Of a stretch of DNA of 60,795 bases, positions 8,079-42,946 are shown one piece after another. Under the pieces are notes generated by a model, which was given only the letters and a program-made list of their open reading frames with translations, ran no database searches and was not told the DNA's origin. A program made the translations under genes and the position numbers. Each line of letters opens with the position of its first letter. Within the stretch, counting starts at the first letter, position 1. The stretch is taken from positions 1 through 60,795 of the forward strand of contig CALJMD010000121.1 of NCBI GenBank assembly GCA_937981915.1. Direction: 5' to 3'. This stretch comes from an uncultured Acidimicrobiales bacterium (GTDB taxonomy: Bacteria; Actinomycetota; Acidimicrobiia; Acidimicrobiales; SZUA-35).

Positions 8079-8843
8079 ATGAAAATCGCAGCCAATCTGG
8101 GATATCTATGGACAGAGCTCGAGTTGTGCGATGCCATACGGCAGGCGCAGCGATACGGATTCGACGCCGTTGAGTTTCATTGGCCGTACATCACCCACGC
8201 TCTTGACGTTGCCCTAACCCTCGAAGAGCTTGATATTCCGCTGATTTGTCTGAACACGGTTGCCGGTGATCTTCCGGCTGGCGAGTTCGGGCTAGCGGCT
8301 CTTGCCGGTCGGGAACACCAGGCCCGTGCCGCCATCGACAAGGCGTTCGCCTACGCCGCCGATGCGTCGGCGTCCTCCATCCATGTACTGGCAGGAGTGG
8401 CGGACGGAAAGCAAGCGGCCGAAACCTACCTGGCAAACCTGCGTTACGCCGCTGAGCTAGGGGAGTCCTACGGCGTGGGCGTTTTGATCGAACCTATCTC
8501 TTCTCACGCCCGACCAGGGTACTTTTTGCGCACCGTGAATCAGGCTGCGGATGTCATCGACCAGTTGCCGACGGATAACGTTTCGATCCTGTTCGACTGC
8601 TTTCACGCCGTTCACGAGGGCTACGAGCTCCTCACCACGATTGAACGCTTTCTGCCCCGCATCGGCCACATCCAGTTCAGTTCGATTCCAGATCGCGCCG
8701 AACCCGACCACGGTGACGTCAACTACGGTGCACTGATTCCGGCCATTCTGGACCTTGGCTACAAAGGGTTTTTCGGAGCCGAGTACATGCCTGCAACCAC
8801 AACTATCGACGGATTGAGTTGGCTCACAGAGCTGAAGGGTTAG
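8079..8843 (+). CDS. hyi: Hydroxypyruvate isomerase-like TIM-barrel (xylose isomerase-like) protein
   Basis: 'KIAANLGYLWTE...GFDAVEFHWPY' and 'IGHIQFSSIPDRAEPDHGDVNY' match the Hyi family pattern. Confidence 0.75.
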   Translation: MKIAANLGYLWTELELCDAIRQAQRYGFDAVEFHWPYITHALDVALTLEELDIPLICLNTVAGDLPAGEFGLAALAGREHQARAAIDKAFAYAADASASSIHVLAGVADGKQAAETYLANLRYAAELGESYGVGVLIEPISSHARPGYFLRTVNQAADVIDQLPTDNVSILFDCFHAVHEGYELLTTIERFLPRIGHIQFSSIPDRAEPDHGDVNYGALIPAILDLGYKGFFGAEYMPATTTIDGLSWLTELKG

Positions 8844-9034
8844 TTGAACCGCGACATTTCGCACCCACAGTGCGTCTATAGAGAAGGTCGGTAACCGAAG
8901 CTGTGGGCTAGGTCCGACCGGTCACGAGGGGGTCAAGTCGGCCCGCAAAACATCGTGACTCCGTTGCTCCCGCGTTTTCCACCATTTGCTTTGGGGAAAC
9001 GCTAAACGGGAATCCGCATAAGGGAGATGCAATT

Positions 9035-9790
9035 GTGAATACAAGTAAGGAACTTGCAGCCGAGTTCTTCGGAACGCTTTGGCTCGTCCTCGGAGGGTGT
9101 GGGTCGGCAATCTTCGCCGCTCAGTTCTTGACCGGAGACGGTGAGTGGGATCTAGGTATTGGCCTGCTGGGTGTAAGCCTGGCATTCGGTTTGACGGTTG
9201 TCACCGGTGCCTATGCCTTCGGTCATATTTCCGGCGGCCACTTCAACCCGGCGGTAACGCTGGGACTGGTAGCCGGTGGAAAGTTTCCGGCAGCCAAGGT
9301 TGTCCAGTACATCGTTGCTCAGGTCCTCGGTGCGCTAGCCGCCGGTTTTGTCATCTACGCCATCGTAAGTGGCCAAGATGGCTGGGCTGGCATTGGCGAG
9401 GGCGCTGGGACATTTGCCACCAACGGCTATGGCGCCGACGGTTCACCGGGCGGCTACAACGCTGTATCGGTGTTCATCGCAGAAGCAGTGCTCACCGCGC
9501 TCTTCTTGATGGTCATTCTTGGAGCCACCGCGAAGCGGGCGGCCGCCGGCATGGGTGGCTTGGCCATCGGTCTGATGTTGACACTGATCCACCTGGTATC
9601 GATTCCGATCAGCAACACCAGCGTGAACCCGGCTCGATCAACGTCACAGGCCATCGTGGCCGCCATCTTCGGTGACGGCGTGTCGACACCGGTCGCCCAG
9701 CTCTGGATGTTCTGGGTAGCCCCGATCGTCGGCGCTGTAATCGGCGGAACCATCTACCGAGCGATGCTTGACACTGACGACGACGTGTAA
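9035..9790 (+). CDS. aqpZ: Aquaporin Z
   Basis: Two NPA boxes ('[11 protein letters not shown]', 'NTSVNPARS'), six hydrophobic segments and '[15 protein letters not shown]' at the N-terminus. GTG start preceded by AAGGGAG. Confidence 0.95.
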
Positions 9791-18299: not shown

Positions 18300-19019
18300 T
18301 CAGCGCTTGAGTCTGGCTTGCTGAATGGCGTAGAAGGCTACAGCGGCGGCGGAGCCCACGTTGATCGAGTCCACATCCCCCGACATGGGGATTCGGACGC
18401 GCTCGTCGGCCGCTTCCAAGCTTTCTGCACTCAGACCGGGGCCCTCCGAGCCGAGCAGCAATCCCACGGCATCGTCTTCGGTGAACGCTAGATCGGCGAT
18501 ATCGGTTGCAGCCGGATCGGGGGTTAAAGCCAGCAAGCGAAATCCTCGGCTCTTCAGCAACTGCAGGTCTTGAGGGAACGGCCCCAGCCTGGCGTACGGC
18601 ATCGAATAGGCTTCGCCCATCGAGACCCTGCCACTGCGCCGGTACAGCGGGTCACAACAAGTCTTGTCCATCACGAATGCGTCGACCCCGAGTGCGGCTG
18701 CACAGCGAAGAATGACGCCAAGGTTCGTCGGGTTGTTGATGTTCTCGAGCACGACGGCCGTTCGAACTCCCGTCAGGGCTTCGTCGATCGAAAGCAGACT
18801 TCGACGTCGAAAACACGCCAGAACACCGCGGTGAAGGTGGTAGCCGGTGACCTTGATCAACACTTCCGGTCCGCAGGCGTAGAGGGGCACGTCATCGGGA
18901 ACTTCGCCGGGCAACGGCTTGGTTCTCTTACCGTCCACCAGCATTGATTCAAGTCGGTAGCCGGCTCTCAAGGCGCGCCCAACAACAATGTCGCCTTCGG
19001 CAATGAAGAATCCGGCCAC
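18300..19019 (-). CDS. TrmH/SpoU-family RNA 2'-O-methyltransferase (minimal ORF; homology continues upstream to ~19142 without a canonical start)
   Basis: SpoU motifs 'VVLENINNPTNLGVILRCAAALG', 'LLLGSEGPGLS' and 'IPMSGDVDSINVGSAAAVAFY'. Upstream in-frame codons encode 'ADIARIEINDPDDQRIEVFQGLRDHVLRRERE', which resembles the conserved N-terminus of actinobacterial homologues. Confidence 0.85.
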   Translation of the reverse strand: MAGFFIAEGDIVVGRALRAGYRLESMLVDGKRTKPLPGEVPDDVPLYACGPEVLIKVTGYHLHRGVLACFRRRSLLSIDEALTGVRTAVVLENINNPTNLGVILRCAAALGVDAFVMDKTCCDPLYRRSGRVSMGEAYSMPYARLGPFPQDLQLLKSRGFRLLALTPDPAATDIADLAFTEDDAVGLLLGSEGPGLSAESLEAADERVRIPMSGDVDSINVGSAAAVAFYAIQQARLKR

Positions 19020-19125
19020 GTCTCCACCGGGGAGCTCGCGCTCTCGGCGAAGGACGTGGTCCCGAAGCCCCTGAAAGACCTCTATGCGTTGGTCGTCCGG
19101 GTCGTTGATCTCGATGCGGGCGATG

Positions 19126-19392
19126 TCAGCGGGGGTACCGGGTCACATCGGGGCCGACGTGCTCGGTAAAGAGTTTGAGGACCTCGCCGGGCTCAGCGTG
19201 TCGACCGGTCTCACCTTTGCTGTAGATCATCTCGCCGTCGACGGTGACGTCAAATACGCCCTTGCCGCCGGTAATCAGCTTCAAGCTCTCGATGGTGTTC
19301 TGGTAGTTGTGGAGAAGATCATTCGTCACGCTCACGGCGTGCTCGGAATAGTCTCAAGGTACGCAGTATGTGATTTCAATCTGGTAGCTCAT
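19126..19392 (-). CDS. SelW-like (Rdx family) thiol-oxidoreductase; predicted selenoprotein with UGA (19356..19354) decoded as Sec in a CxxU motif
   Basis: Manual translation from ATG 19392 gives MSYQIEITYCVP-[TGA]-DYSEHAVSVTNDLL...LITGGKGVFDVTVDGEMIYSKGETGRHAEPGEVLKLF...*. The ORF track reports only the part after the TGA (19126..19335). Confidence 0.7.
19321..19349 (-). promoter_or_regulatory. Candidate bacterial SECIS hairpin downstream of the in-frame UGA
   Basis: In the mRNA, counting from the UGA, +8..+36 reads AUUCCGAG-CACGC-CGUGA-GCGUG-AC-GAAU. This gives a 5-bp GC-rich upper stem, a 5-nt apical loop containing GU, an internal loop and a 4-bp lower stem. Folded by eye. Confidence 0.4.
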
Positions 19393-19517
19393 TGTGTCGT
19401 CAATACTAGCGCTGGCGGCATAGGCGTCGCTCAGGCAGATCGGTTCTAGTTTCTGCCGCCAGCGAGATGGCCACCCGATGAACCGGTGCCCTGGTGGCAC
19501 CCGCTATATTCGGACCT

Positions 19518-19946
19518 ATGAAGGCGTTGGTGATCTACGAAAGCTTGACAGGCAACACAAGGACGGCCTCCTACGAGATAGCCGGACGGTTGACTGCGGC
19601 GGGTGTCCCGACCGAGGTTTCCTCCATCAACGCCATAGATCTGCAGGCGTTGTCCGAAGCTGATGTGGTGATAGTCGGCAGCTGGACTGACGGGATCTTT
19701 TTCTTCGGCCAACGCCCTGGTCGGGCCAGCCGAATCACCAAGAAACTGCCACGCATAGATGCTAAGAAGGCAGTCGTCTTTTGTACCTACGCGCTCGATT
19801 GTGGCTCGACGTTGGAGAAGCTCGAACGCCTGGTGGGAAATGCCGGTGGCGATGTCATCGGAGGTTATTCGATCCGTCGCGACGACCTGCCCGGTGGATC
19901 TCAGGAGCTTGTGGACAGGCTACTCGGCGTACTTCAGGCCTCGTAG
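19518..19946 (+). CDS. Flavodoxin-like fold protein
   Basis: 'MKALVIYESLTGNTRTASYEIAGRL' is the FMN phosphate-binding loop pattern, followed by 'VVIVGSWTDG'. ATG 19518 is preferred over the ORF-track start at 19494. Confidence 0.8.
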   Translation: MKALVIYESLTGNTRTASYEIAGRLTAAGVPTEVSSINAIDLQALSEADVVIVGSWTDGIFFFGQRPGRASRITKKLPRIDAKKAVVFCTYALDCGSTLEKLERLVGNAGGDVIGGYSIRRDDLPGGSQELVDRLLGVLQAS

Positions 19947-19959
19947 TAGCAGTCTCGGC

Positions 19960-20964
19960 TCAGTCGAGACTCAAGAAGCTCGTGGGAGCCTCCCGCTGCT
20001 TTGATCTGTCGGCGACACGAGGCTGTTCGTCACCAGCGGACAACGCCCGCCAGAGTGCCAAATAGGACGGATACTCGATTTCCGGAACCAACCATCCGGA
20101 GTCGACGAGTTCAGCGTGAAGCTTCGGTAGATTCCGCCACGGAACACCCATGTCGACATGGTGGGCCAGGTGCCATCCCGTGTTGTACGGGGCGAGCCAG
20201 AATCGCGCAATCGCCCGTTGCCGGATGACATGAGTTGTTTCCCGTCGGTCTTTCGACTGGATCATGCCGCCGTGTTCGGCAAGGGCCCGGAGGCGGTTAG
20301 AGACCTTCCAGCCGGTCGACCAGGCCGCCATCCAAATCAGATAAAGCAGCGGGCGACCTGTGATGACACAAACGCTGAAAAGGACGACTTGGACAGCGAC
20401 AATCTGCAGAGCTTCACTTCGGCCCCTTCGCACGGCCCGGCCTAGGACCTTCAAGTTCTTGTAGGCGCTGATCCCGATGGCGTCTCGTGTCAGCTTGCGA
20501 CGCATTGACGCACGGCTGATTGGGTACCCCTGGTAGAGGCTGAGGTCGGGCTCCCGAGCACCCATCTCGTCGCGGTGATGGGCAAAGTGCGCACGCCTGT
20601 ACGCCAGCATTGCCTGGAGCGACGGATAGGCCAACAGCCACCGCCCGGCCTGGTCATTGAGTCGCGGATTGCTGAAGAGCAGTCGGTGGGAGGCCTCATG
20701 GGCCAAGATATTCAACAGCGCATGGCCGCGAAACATCAAGATGAATCCAAGCAGGTACGCCCACCAGACGTGTAGATAGCCGACTACCGCCATCAAACCG
20801 AACGTCTGAGCCAGAGCGCCGACTAATGTCAGGGTGCTTCGTACCGTGTCCAATTGCCGCAGTTCGCTGCGGACGTCGGGCCGAGGCTTGGCTGAGGCGG
20901 TCAGTCGCTCAGTAGGCAAGACGTCGGGCAGTAGGCCGCCTTGTGGAACCATGGTTGAGGCCAT
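19960..20964 (-). CDS. Membrane fatty-acid desaturase family protein
   Basis: Three His boxes ('HEASHRLL', 'HFAHHRD', 'HLAHHVD') plus hydrophobic segments. Confidence 0.88.
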   Translation of the reverse strand: MASTMVPQGGLLPDVLPTERLTASAKPRPDVRSELRQLDTVRSTLTLVGALAQTFGLMAVVGYLHVWWAYLLGFILMFRGHALLNILAHEASHRLLFSNPRLNDQAGRWLLAYPSLQAMLAYRRAHFAHHRDEMGAREPDLSLYQGYPISRASMRRKLTRDAIGISAYKNLKVLGRAVRRGRSEALQIVAVQVVLFSVCVITGRPLLYLIWMAAWSTGWKVSNRLRALAEHGGMIQSKDRRETTHVIRQRAIARFWLAPYNTGWHLAHHVDMGVPWRNLPKLHAELVDSGWLVPEIEYPSYLALWRALSAGDEQPRVADRSKQREAPTSFLSLD

Positions 20965-38534: not shown

Positions 38535-40190
38535 ATGGACATGGACGATGACATCAGCGGGGGCACTGGGCGACGGATAGCGGTTTTGAGCCTGTTCCCG
38601 CTCCTTTTCTTTATCGGGCTTGCCGCCTTGGCGCAAATAGAGCTGTCAGATCATCCACGACAGGCGGTCTTTCTTGCCGTTGCGGTACTCGGTGCACTTG
38701 TGACCGCTGCTACCGGCGCGCTGTCCGTGAAAACCGTCAAATCTGTTCTGACCGACGCCCGACAACGCTCGGAGATTCTTGCCCGCCGAGAACTAGCGCC
38801 AACCCGCTGGCAGCAGGCGTCGGCCCTGAATCCTCGGGTCGGTAGCCACAACACCGATCCGTTCGGCGAGCTCGACAACAACCCGTCACTCGATGTTGGA
38901 GCCAACCATCATCAGTACCCGCTGGACAACGCGTCTCAGCTTGACCAGCTCCCGACTCCCCCAAGAACAACGGCGAAAGATCGGCTCGAAGCCGAGGTCT
39001 CCATGTCCAACACCTCGCTTCAGCCGCAGCCGGACGTCTCGCCCCCCGGTCACGCAACCCACGCTGTTGCCCAACCGTCGCCCGCAGGCAACGAGGTGGA
39101 GCCGATCGACCAAGTGCCCGACGCGGTATCCGCGGTTGCTCAGGACCGAGCTGGCCCGGTGGTACGCAACCTTGTTAAACGGATTCAGGCCATGCTCGAT
39201 CGTCAAATCGACCTCGTCGACGAGTTGGAGTCCAAGGAGGAAGATCCGTTTTACCTGGAGAAGCTTTTCAAGATCGATCACTTGGCCAACCGAATGCGTC
39301 GTACCGCTGATGGGCTGCTCGTTCTAGCCGGGGCAGGTCTTGATCGTCGACTTGGCGGCCCGGTTCCGGTTCTTGATGTGCTCCGGGTGTCGATCGGTGA
39401 GGTTGAAGACCATCGTCGAGTTGCCGCGGTGAGAGCGGAGACCGCCTCGGTGTCCGCGGGCGCAGCTCTAGCGTTGGCCCACATGGCCGCTGAGCTGATC
39501 GAGAACGCCATCGAATTCTCGCCGCCAGAGGCAGGGGTCGATGTTGTCGGCCGACGATGCAGCGGCGACGGTCCGATGGCCTATGAGATCCTCATCAGCG
39601 ATCAAGGGATCGGCATGACGGACGCGCAACTGGTCGAGTTGAACAGTCTCCTCCTCGAGCCTCAGGACTTGAATACACTCTCAGGCCACGCGATGGGCCT
39701 GTCCGTTGTTGGTCATTTGGCCCGACGACTGGAGGCATCGGTGACCCTGTCCAGCGGGGGAGCTGGAGGCGTAATCGCCTCGATTCAGCTGCCGTTGGCG
39801 GTGCTCGATGGCACAGTGGTCGAGGTCGAGACCGAGGACGGCGATCGACCCACACCGCCACTGCCGGAGACAGACCGCCTGCAAGCACTACCTCAGCTTG
39901 CGCCGATAACTCCAAACGGCCGATCCAATCGTCCTGAGCCATCTGATCAGCCAAGCCGTCCTCCGGCTGTTTCCGGCCTCCCGGTACTCGATCGTGCCCG
40001 TGTCGCCTCCGACGTGACCCAACAGACTGACGGAGGCCAGCGGCGACGCAACGTCGACGGCCAACCCCAGAGTCCTTCGCGTCCCAGCCACCGAGACCCC
40101 GGCGAGATCGAAGACATGCTGCGGCGGTACCGGCAGGGTCAAAGCGGGGTCGAACCAACCAGCTCCGAGTGGACGGGGGGCGGCGGGTGA
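38535..40190 (+). CDS. cvnA: Conservon component A: membrane-anchored histidine-kinase-like ATPase (CvnA-type)
   Basis: An N-terminal TM pair, 'KIDHLANRMRRTADGLLVLAG' and a HATPase_c region ('ELIENAIEFSPP', 'ILISDQGIGM', 'GHAMGLSVV'), followed by a Pro-rich tail. It is followed by cvnB, cvnC and cvnD. Confidence 0.8.
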   Translation: MDMDDDISGGTGRRIAVLSLFPLLFFIGLAALAQIELSDHPRQAVFLAVAVLGALVTAATGALSVKTVKSVLTDARQRSEILARRELAPTRWQQASALNPRVGSHNTDPFGELDNNPSLDVGANHHQYPLDNASQLDQLPTPPRTTAKDRLEAEVSMSNTSLQPQPDVSPPGHATHAVAQPSPAGNEVEPIDQVPDAVSAVAQDRAGPVVRNLVKRIQAMLDRQIDLVDELESKEEDPFYLEKLFKIDHLANRMRRTADGLLVLAGAGLDRRLGGPVPVLDVLRVSIGEVEDHRRVAAVRAETASVSAGAALALAHMAAELIENAIEFSPPEAGVDVVGRRCSGDGPMAYEILISDQGIGMTDAQLVELNSLLLEPQDLNTLSGHAMGLSVVGHLARRLEASVTLSSGGAGGVIASIQLPLAVLDGTVVEVETEDGDRPTPPLPETDRLQALPQLAPITPNGRSNRPEPSDQPSRPPAVSGLPVLDRARVASDVTQQTDGGQRRRNVDGQPQSPSRPSHRDPGEIEDMLRRYRQGQSGVEPTSSEWTGGGG

Positions 40191-40600
40191 GCAGCGAGAC
40201 AGAACGACTCTCGTGGCTGCTCGACGGCTTCGTCGAGCGAACGTCCGGAGTTCATGAAGCCGTCGTAGTGTCGGTCGACGGCCTCGCTATGGCCTCGTCA
40301 TCACAGATGGATCGAGATTCCGCCGACCGGTTTGCTGCAGTTGCCTCCGGCCTGGTCGGCCTAAGCTACGGCGCGGCCGGGCGATTCGGTGGCGGTTCTG
40401 TACTCCAAGTGATCGTCGAGATGGAAAACGCGTTTCTACTGGTCACCGGCATCGGGGCCGGTTCTCTACTGGCGACCGTCGCCGACTCATCAGCTGATAT
40501 CGGCATGGTGGCCTACCAGATGGCAGTGATGGTTGACCGAGTCGGCGAAGTCTTAACGCCGGCTTCCCGGGCCGGTTCCACGGGCGTGTCGAGCCCGTGA
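40187..40600 (+). CDS. cvnB: Conservon component B: Roadblock/LC7 (MglB-like) domain protein
   Basis: 'LSWLLDGFVERTSGVHEAVVVSVDGLAMA' is a Roadblock/LC7 pattern. The GTG 40187 start forms a GTGA overlap with the cvnA stop. Confidence 0.8.
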   Translation: MSSETERLSWLLDGFVERTSGVHEAVVVSVDGLAMASSSQMDRDSADRFAAVASGLVGLSYGAAGRFGGGSVLQVIVEMENAFLLVTGIGAGSLLATVADSSADIGMVAYQMAVMVDRVGEVLTPASRAGSTGVSSP

Positions 40601-40962
40601 ACCCGCACAACGTTCCCTCGATCCGGGTTCCCCCGTACCTAATCACCGAAGGTCGGACAACACCCGACATCGTGTTGGCCCTTGAGTCGCGTGTGCAGCG
40701 ATTGGTCGGTGGCTCCCTCGGGGCCATGGCGGGTACCGCCATGCCAGAGAAGGCGGCGATTCTGGCAGCTTGTCGACTGCCAACGCCCGTAGCTGAGATC
40801 GCCGGAAGAACCAGACTTCCAATTCAGGTCACCAGAATCCTCATCAGCGATCTGATCGATGAGGGACTTATGGCGGTGGAGACCGGCGGGGCCAGTGCCA
40901 ACGACCGCCCCGACATTCAACTGCTTGAACGGGTGCTGAGCGGACTGCGAGAAAATCGATGA
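40597..40962 (+). CDS. cvnC: Conservon component C: DUF742 protein
   Basis: The 'VPPYLITEGRT' motif and a C-terminal wHTH-like 'VAEIAGRTRLPIQVTRILISDLIDEGL'. It has a 4-nt overlap with both neighbours. Confidence 0.8.
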   Translation: MNPHNVPSIRVPPYLITEGRTTPDIVLALESRVQRLVGGSLGAMAGTAMPEKAAILAACRLPTPVAEIAGRTRLPIQVTRILISDLIDEGLMAVETGGASANDRPDIQLLERVLSGLRENR

Positions 40963-41582
40963 ACCCGCAATCGGAACACCTGGCGGTCAAGGTGGTCGTA
41001 GCTGGGGGCTTTTCGGTGGGCAAGACCACCATGGTCGGCGCTATCTCCGATATCGAGCCGCTCTCAACCGAGGCCGACCTCACTATGGAGAGCGTCGGCA
41101 TAGACGAATTCGGGGCCTCTAAGCCGAAGACATCCACGACCGTTGCCCTCGACTTTGGACGCGTCAACCTCGACGCGGGCCTGACTCTGTATCTCTTCGG
41201 AGCACCCGGCCAGGAACGCTTCCGCTTCATGTGGGATGAGCTTGTTCGAGGCAGCGTCGGCGCCATTGTCTTAGTCGACACGCTGCGGCTCGTCGACTGC
41301 TTTGCCTCAATCACTTTCCTGGAACAGGCCGGGGTGCCGTTTGTCGTCGCCATCAACACATTCGACAACGTGCTACACCACCATCCCGACGACGTGCGCA
41401 GCGCATTGGGCCTAGACGACGAAATTCCGGTCTTGATCTCGGACGCCCGGGAACGGGAATCGGTCAGTGACTGCCTGGTGACGCTGGTCGAACACGCCAT
41501 CGTCTCGTCAAGAGGCGTTGGGCGTCAACCTCAGCGCTTCGGGCCGGCCAAGAGCCCTAGAACGTCGGAGCTGCTCCGATAA
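40959..41582 (+). CDS. cvnD: Conservon component D: small Ras/MglA-like GTPase
   Basis: 'KVVVAGGFSVGKTT' (G1), 'LFGAPGQERF' (G3) and 'VVAINTFD' (G4-like). Confidence 0.85.
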   Translation: MNPQSEHLAVKVVVAGGFSVGKTTMVGAISDIEPLSTEADLTMESVGIDEFGASKPKTSTTVALDFGRVNLDAGLTLYLFGAPGQERFRFMWDELVRGSVGAIVLVDTLRLVDCFASITFLEQAGVPFVVAINTFDNVLHHHPDDVRSALGLDDEIPVLISDARERESVSDCLVTLVEHAIVSSRGVGRQPQRFGPAKSPRTSELLR

Positions 41583-42637: not shown

Positions 42638-42946
42638 GTGGATTCTGAAAGTTATCCACAGAGGGCCCCCTCGAGTGGCCCTCCGCTACGGCCTGACGGC
42701 ATCACTCAGCCACGACCTGATCGGTTCGGCGAGAGTGAGGTCGGGTTCGCCGACGCGATGGATCGCCACCGTGAGGCGATAGATGCGGGTTCGCCCGGCT
42801 ACCTCGACCCAACGTCGGGGCTCTTTGTGATGACGGCGGCCTACCTTCGCGATCGCCGATACTGCTGCGACCGAGGATGTCGGCACTGTCCGTTCGAGCC
42901 GGGCCAGTCCAAACGAGGTAGCCGTTCAGAGCCCGACGGCGGCTGA
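42638..42946 (+). CDS. DUF5522-like cysteine-motif protein
   Basis: 'GLFVMTAAYLRDRRYCCDRGCRHCPF' matches the C-terminal CC..GC.HCP motif of that family. Confidence 0.6.
   Translation: MDSESYPQRAPSSGPPLRPDGITQPRPDRFGESEVGFADAMDRHREAIDAGSPGYLDPTSGLFVMTAAYLRDRRYCCDRGCRHCPFEPGQSKRGSRSEPDGG

Follow-up and report, generated by a model that had tools for sequence, protein, structure and literature searches.

Bacterial SelW-like selenoproteins are said to have been described by Kryukov and Gladyshev in 2004. Members with a CxxU motif and a selenocysteine insertion sequence (SECIS) just after the UGA codon were reported by Zhang, Gladyshev and co-workers between 2005 and 2008 (PMC1088965, PMC1794560, PMC2398784). 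In the GOS data, the SelW-like family is the most abundant selenoprotein family, with 427 sequences against 56 Cys homologues (PMC2398784), and few Cys homologues occur in organisms that use selenocysteine (Sec) (PMC1794560). Selenoprotein genes are almost universally mis-annotated (PMC2398784, PMC1794560). Here we describe such a gene in a 60,795-nt stretch of DNA from an uncultured Acidimicrobiales bacterium (GenBank assembly GCA_937981915.1, contig CALJMD010000121.1), referred to below as the window. With a probability of roughly 90%, judged from sequence comparison, positions 19392-19126 of the minus strand encode an 88-residue SelW-like (Rdx family) thioredoxin-fold selenoprotein with the motif Cys10-Val-Pro-Sec13, the in-frame UGA most likely specifying selenocysteine.

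The predicted gene is like other members of the bacterial SelW-like family (PF10262, formerly PF05169) in being about 90 aa long and thioredoxin-like, with CxxU right after beta1, some 10 residues from the N-terminus, and in having a predicted SECIS directly 3' of the UGA, its small apical loop containing a G. Shared with the family, too, are Sec forms that far outnumber Cys forms, abundance in marine and aquatic metagenomes, and routine mis-annotation. Compared with other bacterial SelW-like genes, those of the Acidimicrobiia clade have a C-terminal motif of their own, TGRHAEPGEVL, a minimal hairpin of 5 bp with a 5-nt loop and an apparently leaderless promoter layout; otherwise there is no difference in kind. 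Every testable defining feature of the bacterial SelW-like selenoprotein family is present in the gene as predicted; the analysis correctly re-annotates a gene of known type and does not reveal a new system. Only the apparently leaderless, compact layout and the minimal predicted SECIS without a bulge seem mildly unusual. The first-pass annotation, made from the sequence of the window alone, had called the gene partly unreported, which holds for its database annotation but not for the family, known since 2004-2008.

The minus-strand frame opens with ATG at 19392-19390, runs through eleven more sense codons to a single in-frame TGA at 19356-19354 and ends at a TGA at 19128-19126. Its product is MSYQIEITYCVP[UGA]DYSEHAVSVTNDLLHNYQNTIESLKLITGGKGVFDVTVDGEMIYSKGETGRHAEPGEVLKLFTEHVGPDVTRYPR, 88 codons with the UGA counted, and the translation follows the pattern MSYQIEITYCVP*DYSEHAVSVTNDLL...GGKGVFDVTVDGEMIYSKGETGRHAEPGEV...RYPR*, the asterisks marking the two TGA codons. 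The redox motif reads C-V-P-U, with the UGA at its second redox position. UGA serves twice in this gene, as internal codon 13 and as terminator, its meaning being set by context; because the gene's own terminator is TGA, the codon is not reassigned in the source organism. The coordinates and residues given in the first-pass annotation for the frame from ATG 19392 were all correct on re-reading, and the list of open reading frames (ORFs) indeed holds only 19126..19335 on the minus strand, a 69-aa frame starting at GTG. The parts of the gene are as follows.

19126..19392, minus strand: full SelW-like (Rdx family) predicted selenoprotein coding sequence (CDS), 88 codons including Sec13 plus the TGA stop (from translation, Pfam, TIGR02174 and 80 related loci)
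19390..19392, minus strand: start codon ATG (from ATG placement in relatives and a Pfam domain beginning at residue 4)
19363..19365, minus strand: Cys10 codon TGC, first residue of the CxxU redox motif (Cys in 81/81 sequences; aligned with 3dex and 2fa8)
19354..19356, minus strand: in-frame UGA, predicted selenocysteine codon U13 (from conservation in relatives and alignment with the second Cys of CxxC)
19126..19128, minus strand: terminating TGA stop (from sequence and translation)

For family-profile searches, U was replaced by C in the 88-aa product. The Pfam family Rdx (PF10262) matched with E = 3e-17 and 63 bits (cut-off 22.6), residues 4-74 lying on profile positions 1-71, and the NCBIfam family TIGR02174 CXXU_selWTH matched with 50.4 bits against a cut-off of 34.2. 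Both matches agree with the Rdx/SelW-like layout recognized in the first-pass annotation. Since the Rdx match begins at residue 4, the 12 'extra' N-terminal codons belong to the domain. The Campylobacter-type SelT/W/H equivalog NF041051 (SelTWH_Campy) scored 74 bits, below its cut-off of 88; the window protein represents a subfamily related to this equivalog, not the equivalog itself. In a sequence search of the PDB, the best matches were the bacterial SelW-related proteins 3dex (SAV_2001), 2fa8 (Atu0228), 2p0g, 2oka, 2obk and 2ojl, followed by MIEN1 and mouse SelW. ITYCVPU of the window protein aligns with IEYCTQC of 3dex and IRYCTQC of 2fa8, which places the UGA exactly on the second redox Cys, as had been proposed.

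As a structural proxy, we used the AlphaFold model of the Cys-form homologue P0003, which is 62% identical to the window protein. The model has a predicted local distance difference test (pLDDT) score of 89 and the order beta1, CxxC loop, alpha1, beta2, beta3, beta4, alpha2. Its top Foldseek matches were all bacterial SelW-related crystal structures, with template modelling (TM) scores of 0.8-0.88, and MIEN1, mouse SelW and thioredoxins came after with weaker scores. Through this proxy, the thioredoxin-like Rdx fold is predicted for the window protein. The Cys-type bacterial Rdx structures (Atu0228 2fa8, SAV_2001 3dex, VC 2p0g, PA 2oka, Pfl 2obk) share the fold of the P0003 model and the position of the motif, but have Cys instead of Sec and a sequence identity of only 22-29%. 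Mammalian SelW (mouse, 2npb) and MIEN1 (2ljk) belong to the same Rdx fold family and carry a CxxU/CxxC motif, yet their similarity is weaker (E = 0.41 by sequence, TM 0.62).

A one-genome-per-species scan gave 80 related loci, aligned across the stop by tblastn and almost all from Acidimicrobiia/Acidimicrobiales metagenome-assembled genomes (MAGs), including Ilumatobacter, Ca. Microthrix and MedAcidi. Together with the window they form a set of 81 sequences. TGA is kept in 79 of the 80 related species and replaced by TGT (Cys) in one, L035, so that position 13 reads TGA in 80/81 and TGT in 1/81 sequences; Cys10 is invariant (81/81). A second Cys form is the locus of P0003 (L085), whose DNA has TGC at the Sec position. 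The coding signature extends on both sides of the TGA, and the gene model with an in-frame TGA is common to all related loci bar the Cys form. The first two positions of codons -8 to -1 (I-x-I-T-Y-C-V-P) have entropies of about 0-0.8 bits, the third positions 0.3-1.8 bits. Because variation sits mainly at third positions, these codons are evidently translated and under purifying selection. Among the checks named in the first-pass annotation were conservation of the 12 upstream codons and the identity of the Cys-or-Sec column; the codons are kept as protein, and the column holds TGA in 79/80 and TGT in 1/80 loci.

L035 (3025-3090) and L085 (289-400) are the only Cys-form genes found in the clade. 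Both retain an identical SECIS-like hairpin and the same -10 arrangement, which suggests that they may be recent Sec-to-Cys conversions.

Downstream of the UGA, we considered the hairpin at two extents, numbering its nucleotides from the U of the UGA.

19327..19341, minus strand: conserved core of the predicted SECIS, 5-bp stem CACGC/GCGUG and loop CGUGA with G22 and U23 (from covariation and the invariant loop GU)
19315..19355, minus strand: extended minimum free energy (MFE) stem-loop including the lower stem, window-specific and not conserved (from the MFE fold and pairing across the 81 sequences)

The core begins 12 nt after the UGA and is conserved at the RNA level. In the window, its upper stem is formed by CACGC at 19341-19337 (nt 16-20) and GCGUG at 19331-19327 (nt 26-30), closing the loop CGUGA at 19336-19332; below it, the fold has two lower helices, including the stem UAUUC/GAAUG. 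The MFE fold of the 50-61 nt after the UGA has -12.3 kcal/mol (z ~ -1.5). Since 13-16 of 200 shuffled sequences fold as well, the single-sequence fold proves nothing, and it is the comparison with relatives that raises the combination of hairpin and UGA above chance. In the gap-free alignment of the 81 sequences, the upper helix (columns 21-26/32-37) is 89.7% paired, with changes on both sides in 5/6 pairs, and columns 22-26/32-36 are 89-100% paired. The lower helices are paired in about 60% and mostly broken, and an extension of the helix to columns 19-20/38-39 is not conserved. At pair 23/35, 65 sequences have G-C and 5 have A-U. The window is one of these five: it has His18 CAC and Val22 GUG where Arg CGC and Ala GCG are usual, which keeps an A-U pair. 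At pair 24/34, C-G (70 sequences) gives way to U-A in 5, and at pair 25/33 G-C (75 sequences) to A-U in 4; for each pair, the Fisher test on the compensatory changes gives p between 1e-3 and 6e-7. The loop G and U do not vary in any of the 81 sequences. Of the stem-loop drawn in the first-pass annotation, the MFE fold, the upper stem and the CGUGA loop are borne out, the latter two being conserved, while its lower stem AUUC/GAAU is specific to the window.

The nearest well-known counterpart for this geometry is the SECIS of E. coli fdhF, the bacterial reference element, likewise a hairpin within the CDS just 3' of the UGA, with an apical GU at a nearly equal distance. Measured in the same way, the fdhF element follows a UGA at codon 140, its loop GGUC spans nt 22-25 (G23/U24) and U17 is bulged. 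Its likeness to the window hairpin, already remarked on in the first-pass annotation, extends to a nearly equal position of the loop GU (G22/U23), and the concern that no conserved hairpin might follow the UGA is answered by a covarying one at an fdhF-like distance. The two differ in that fdhF has a longer two-part stem, the bulged U17 and the 4-nt loop GGUC, whereas the predicted SECIS of the window has 5-6 conserved bp, no bulge and the 5-nt loop CGUGA. Eukaryotic SECIS elements lie in the 3' untranslated region and are read by SBP2 and eEFSec, in contrast to the window hairpin, which follows the UGA inside the CDS.

Placement of the start codon in relatives supports the upstream ATG. In 76/77 loci where it could be placed, and in the window, the ATG precedes the TGA by 10-17 codons; in the Cys form L035 the distance is 20 codons. 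A -10-like TANNNT box ends 6-10 nt before this ATG in 68/77 loci, with a mode of 6-7 nt, and at any other offset in the 60 nt upstream TANNNT gives at most one match each (77 loci). Shine-Dalgarno-like cores occur in 11/77 loci only. In the window, the box is the following.

19403..19408, minus strand: -10-like promoter hexamer TAGTAT, 10 nt upstream of the ATG (from TANNNT placement in relatives)

As TANNNT is placed for the upstream ATG, this promoter-like box serves that ATG and not the internal GTG. The possibility that homologues start after the UGA, raised in the first-pass annotation, is contradicted by starts that lie upstream, with the -10-like box placed there. The arrangement points to a leaderless or near-leaderless mRNA of actinobacterial type. 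Predicted leaderless expression would leave the Sec codon 10-17 codons from the mRNA 5' end. As a general layout for the Acidimicrobiia, we only tentatively propose a leaderless mRNA with a -10 box, an AUG at the 5' end, 10-17 codons, the UGA and a bulge-less 15-nt SECIS, all within ~70 nt; the odds of this class-wide version are somewhat below even.

Database entries reflect a different gene model. A protein search returned 241 homologues, of which the best 120 were examined for length, and 118 of these 120 are stored as proteins of 63-74 aa. All 18 truncated homologues that were retrieved or aligned start at or just upstream of the start of the window's 69-aa ORF. One truncated copy is the NCBI entry named 'Rdx family protein'. 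Two entries are longer: P0003 (89 aa), with CVPC at the motif, and P0006 (90 aa), with CVPW. Since the DNA underlying P0006 has TGA, its 'W' is a code-table artefact. Two features of the window correspond to false gene calls.

19333..19335, minus strand: GTG in the SECIS loop, codon of Val20, a false start for ORF finders (from the ORF list and homologue lengths)
19084..19449, plus strand: antisense 121-aa shadow ORF, not a gene, spanning the whole SelW gene (from the ORF list; called in a near-identical contig)

Database copies are cut near one place because gene callers take the conserved loop GUG (19335) as a start. The same SelW gene, TGA included, is present in the ENA contig L081 (99.66% identical), whose annotation leaves SelW uncalled in favor of the 121-aa antisense ORF (8788-9153), which has no Pfam hit. 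The homologue lengths and L081 agree with the expectation that standard callers would truncate or miss the gene. In ~20 related loci, the TGA position is overlapped by ORFs of 110 aa or more, most of them on the opposite strand.

If the gene is expressed as a selenoprotein, its mRNA would start at or a few nt before the AUG, from the -10 box 10 nt upstream, and the 5-bp stem with its CGUGA loop (nt 16-30) would act as a bacterial SECIS. SelB with GTP and Sec-tRNA(Sec) would bind loop G22/U23 and deliver selenocysteine as the ribosome reaches the UGA at codon 13; without the SelB complex, translation would end after 12 residues. The product would presumably be a small thiol/selenol oxidoreductase cycling via a Cys10-Sec13 selenenylsulfide.

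Several results weigh against this picture. The stability of the window hairpin does not by itself significantly exceed that of shuffled sequence, and the core stem is short (5 bp) and without the bulged U17 of fdhF. No SECIS or other Rfam family was found in a gathering-threshold scan of the whole window or in a permissive scan of 19200-19450; bacterial SECIS elements are poorly represented in Rfam (preprint bioRxiv 10.64898/2026.04.03.716425). The hairpin is also retained unchanged in the two Cys-form genes, L035 and L085. ARAGORN found no tRNA-Sec in the window or in the first 60 of the 80 related loci, and indeed no tRNA gene at all in the 60.8 kb of the window, while E. coli SelA, SelB and SelD queries remained unmatched by tblastn in the window and 81 fetched loci. 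Pfam and NCBIfam scans of ~40 window ORFs yielded ordinary metabolism genes and no sel genes. Such an absence is expected, as the window covers 60 kb of a genome of several Mb. Finally, because synteny around the gene is weak, its neighbourhood gives no clue to function.

These points bear on three other explanations. In the by-product reading of the hairpin, the gene does encode a selenoprotein, but the 15-nt hairpin merely follows from the R-A-V-S-A peptide and GC-rich codon bias, and the element recognized by SelB lies elsewhere or is looser. The short stem and the lack of an Rfam model fit this account, and as L035 and L085 keep an identical hairpin, the peptide could indeed account for part of the conservation. 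Against it, third-position entropy within the hairpin is 0.10 bits at Ala+6 and 0.23 bits at Val+7, compared with 1.83 bits at Val-2 and 1.84 bits at Ala+10 elsewhere in the same genes, where every synonymous codon for Val and Ala occurs. Pairing-preserving double changes recur in several unrelated lineages whose nearest neighbours have the common pair, and because these doubles mix synonymous and non-synonymous substitutions (e.g., ACC...AGU, CGU...ACG, CAC...GUG), selection on the protein alone is not enough to produce them. The loop motif also outlives a change of peptide: L086, with a different peptide and an unrelated stem CCAUC/GAUGG, retains the CGUG loop motif, shifted 4 nt away from the UGA. 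We therefore regard a by-product hairpin as unlikely. L086 itself (461-733, Logan SRR776449 contig) is a low-GC, non-Acidimicrobiia homologue with an in-frame TGA, a W in the database protein and an ordinary AAGGAG ribosome-binding site.

Alternatively, the UGA might be decoded as a standard amino acid (Trp, Cys or Arg), either through code reassignment or by a near-cognate tRNA, and the hairpin would do no more than stimulate read-through. The window and flanking loci, in which no Sec machinery was found, and the Trp of the P0006 entry would suit such decoding. However, the TGA terminator speaks against reassignment, the 'W' of P0006 comes from the caller's code table, and the UGA alternates only with Cys codons (TGT/TGC) at the second position of a CxxC-type motif, the signature Sec/Cys pair. 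The hairpin, moreover, has SECIS geometry and an invariant loop GU, and the machinery has been reported for members of the same order: Peng et al. 2016 (PMC5029168 Tables S1, S2) list SelD, SelA and SelB, along with 15, 10 and 7 known selenoproteins, respectively, for Ilumatobacter coccineus, I. nonamiensis and Ca. Microthrix parvicella, and none for Acidimicrobium ferrooxidans. The 80 loci with the SelW-like gene include Ilumatobacter and Microthrix MAGs, and in the same class selA, selB, selC and selD are reported for all 84 complete Actinomarina genomes (bioRxiv 10.64898/2026.04.03.716425). Decoding as a standard amino acid accordingly appears very unlikely. Still less credible, to the point of being negligible, is a pseudogene or truncated gene in which the TGA truly terminates translation, leaving no functional product at all or just the 69 residues encoded from GTG 19335. 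This is the model given by ORF finders and most databases, including the 63-74-aa entries, yet that 'GTG start' is merely the conserved GUG of the hairpin loop. A 69-aa product would be without beta1, the redox motif and the start of alpha1, the -10-like box is positioned for the upstream ATG, and TGA is retained in 79/80 species, the 8-12 codons that precede it being under purifying selection.

The SelW-like gene is flanked by a divergent flavodoxin-like gene (19494-19946, plus strand) and, downstream, by a SpoU/RlmB-type methyltransferase gene (18300-19019, minus strand). This neighbourhood is not kept among relatives, with a flavodoxin-like gene upstream in ~14 loci and a SpoU methylase downstream in 11/81. 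A flavodoxin-SelW redox partnership is possible but unsupported, the pairing occurring in only ~14/81 loci. A fatty-acid-desaturase/hydroxylase-family gene (19960-20964, minus strand) adjoins the flavodoxin-like gene. A further search of the window for selenoprotein genes gave 80 TGA-interrupted Cys-motif candidates, of which the inspected ones lay off-frame inside known genes and the rest were not individually checked; the larger intergenic gaps that were inspected held ordinary small genes only. A gene map based on GC content at third codon positions (GC3) was not discriminating in this 60% GC window. Elsewhere, a conservon-like cluster of four genes with overlapping frames, typical of Actinobacteria, occupies 38535-41582 (plus strand).

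38535-40190, plus strand: histidine-kinase-like ATPase of the conservon-like cluster
40169-40600, plus strand: Roadblock/LC7 protein of the same cluster
40597-40962, plus strand: DUF742 protein of the same cluster
40959-41582, plus strand: small GTPase-like ATP_bind_1 protein of the same cluster

A small DUF5522 protein with the Cys-rich C-terminal motif CCDRGCRHC is encoded at 42638-42946 (plus strand), in an otherwise empty gap between alpha/beta hydrolase and gamma-glutamyltranspeptidase genes.

No new biological question arises from the analysis; descriptions of SelW-like CxxU selenoproteins with their SECIS elements go back to 2004-2008. An 88-aa selenoprotein is the appropriate annotation for the locus, in place of the current 69-aa fragment or, in a near-identical public contig, the 121-aa antisense ORF, and the 81-sequence set, with its clean minimal SECIS hairpin overlapping the coding region, could help train bacterial selenoprotein finders. 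If the leaderless layout holds true, it would represent an unusually compact natural unit for Sec insertion and would point to a mode of SelB-SECIS recognition, with a 5-bp stem, a CGUGA loop and no bulged U, that is unlike the E. coli fdhF paradigm. For the source organism, an Acidimicrobiales-like actinobacterium, the SelW-like gene is a predicted mark of selenium use.

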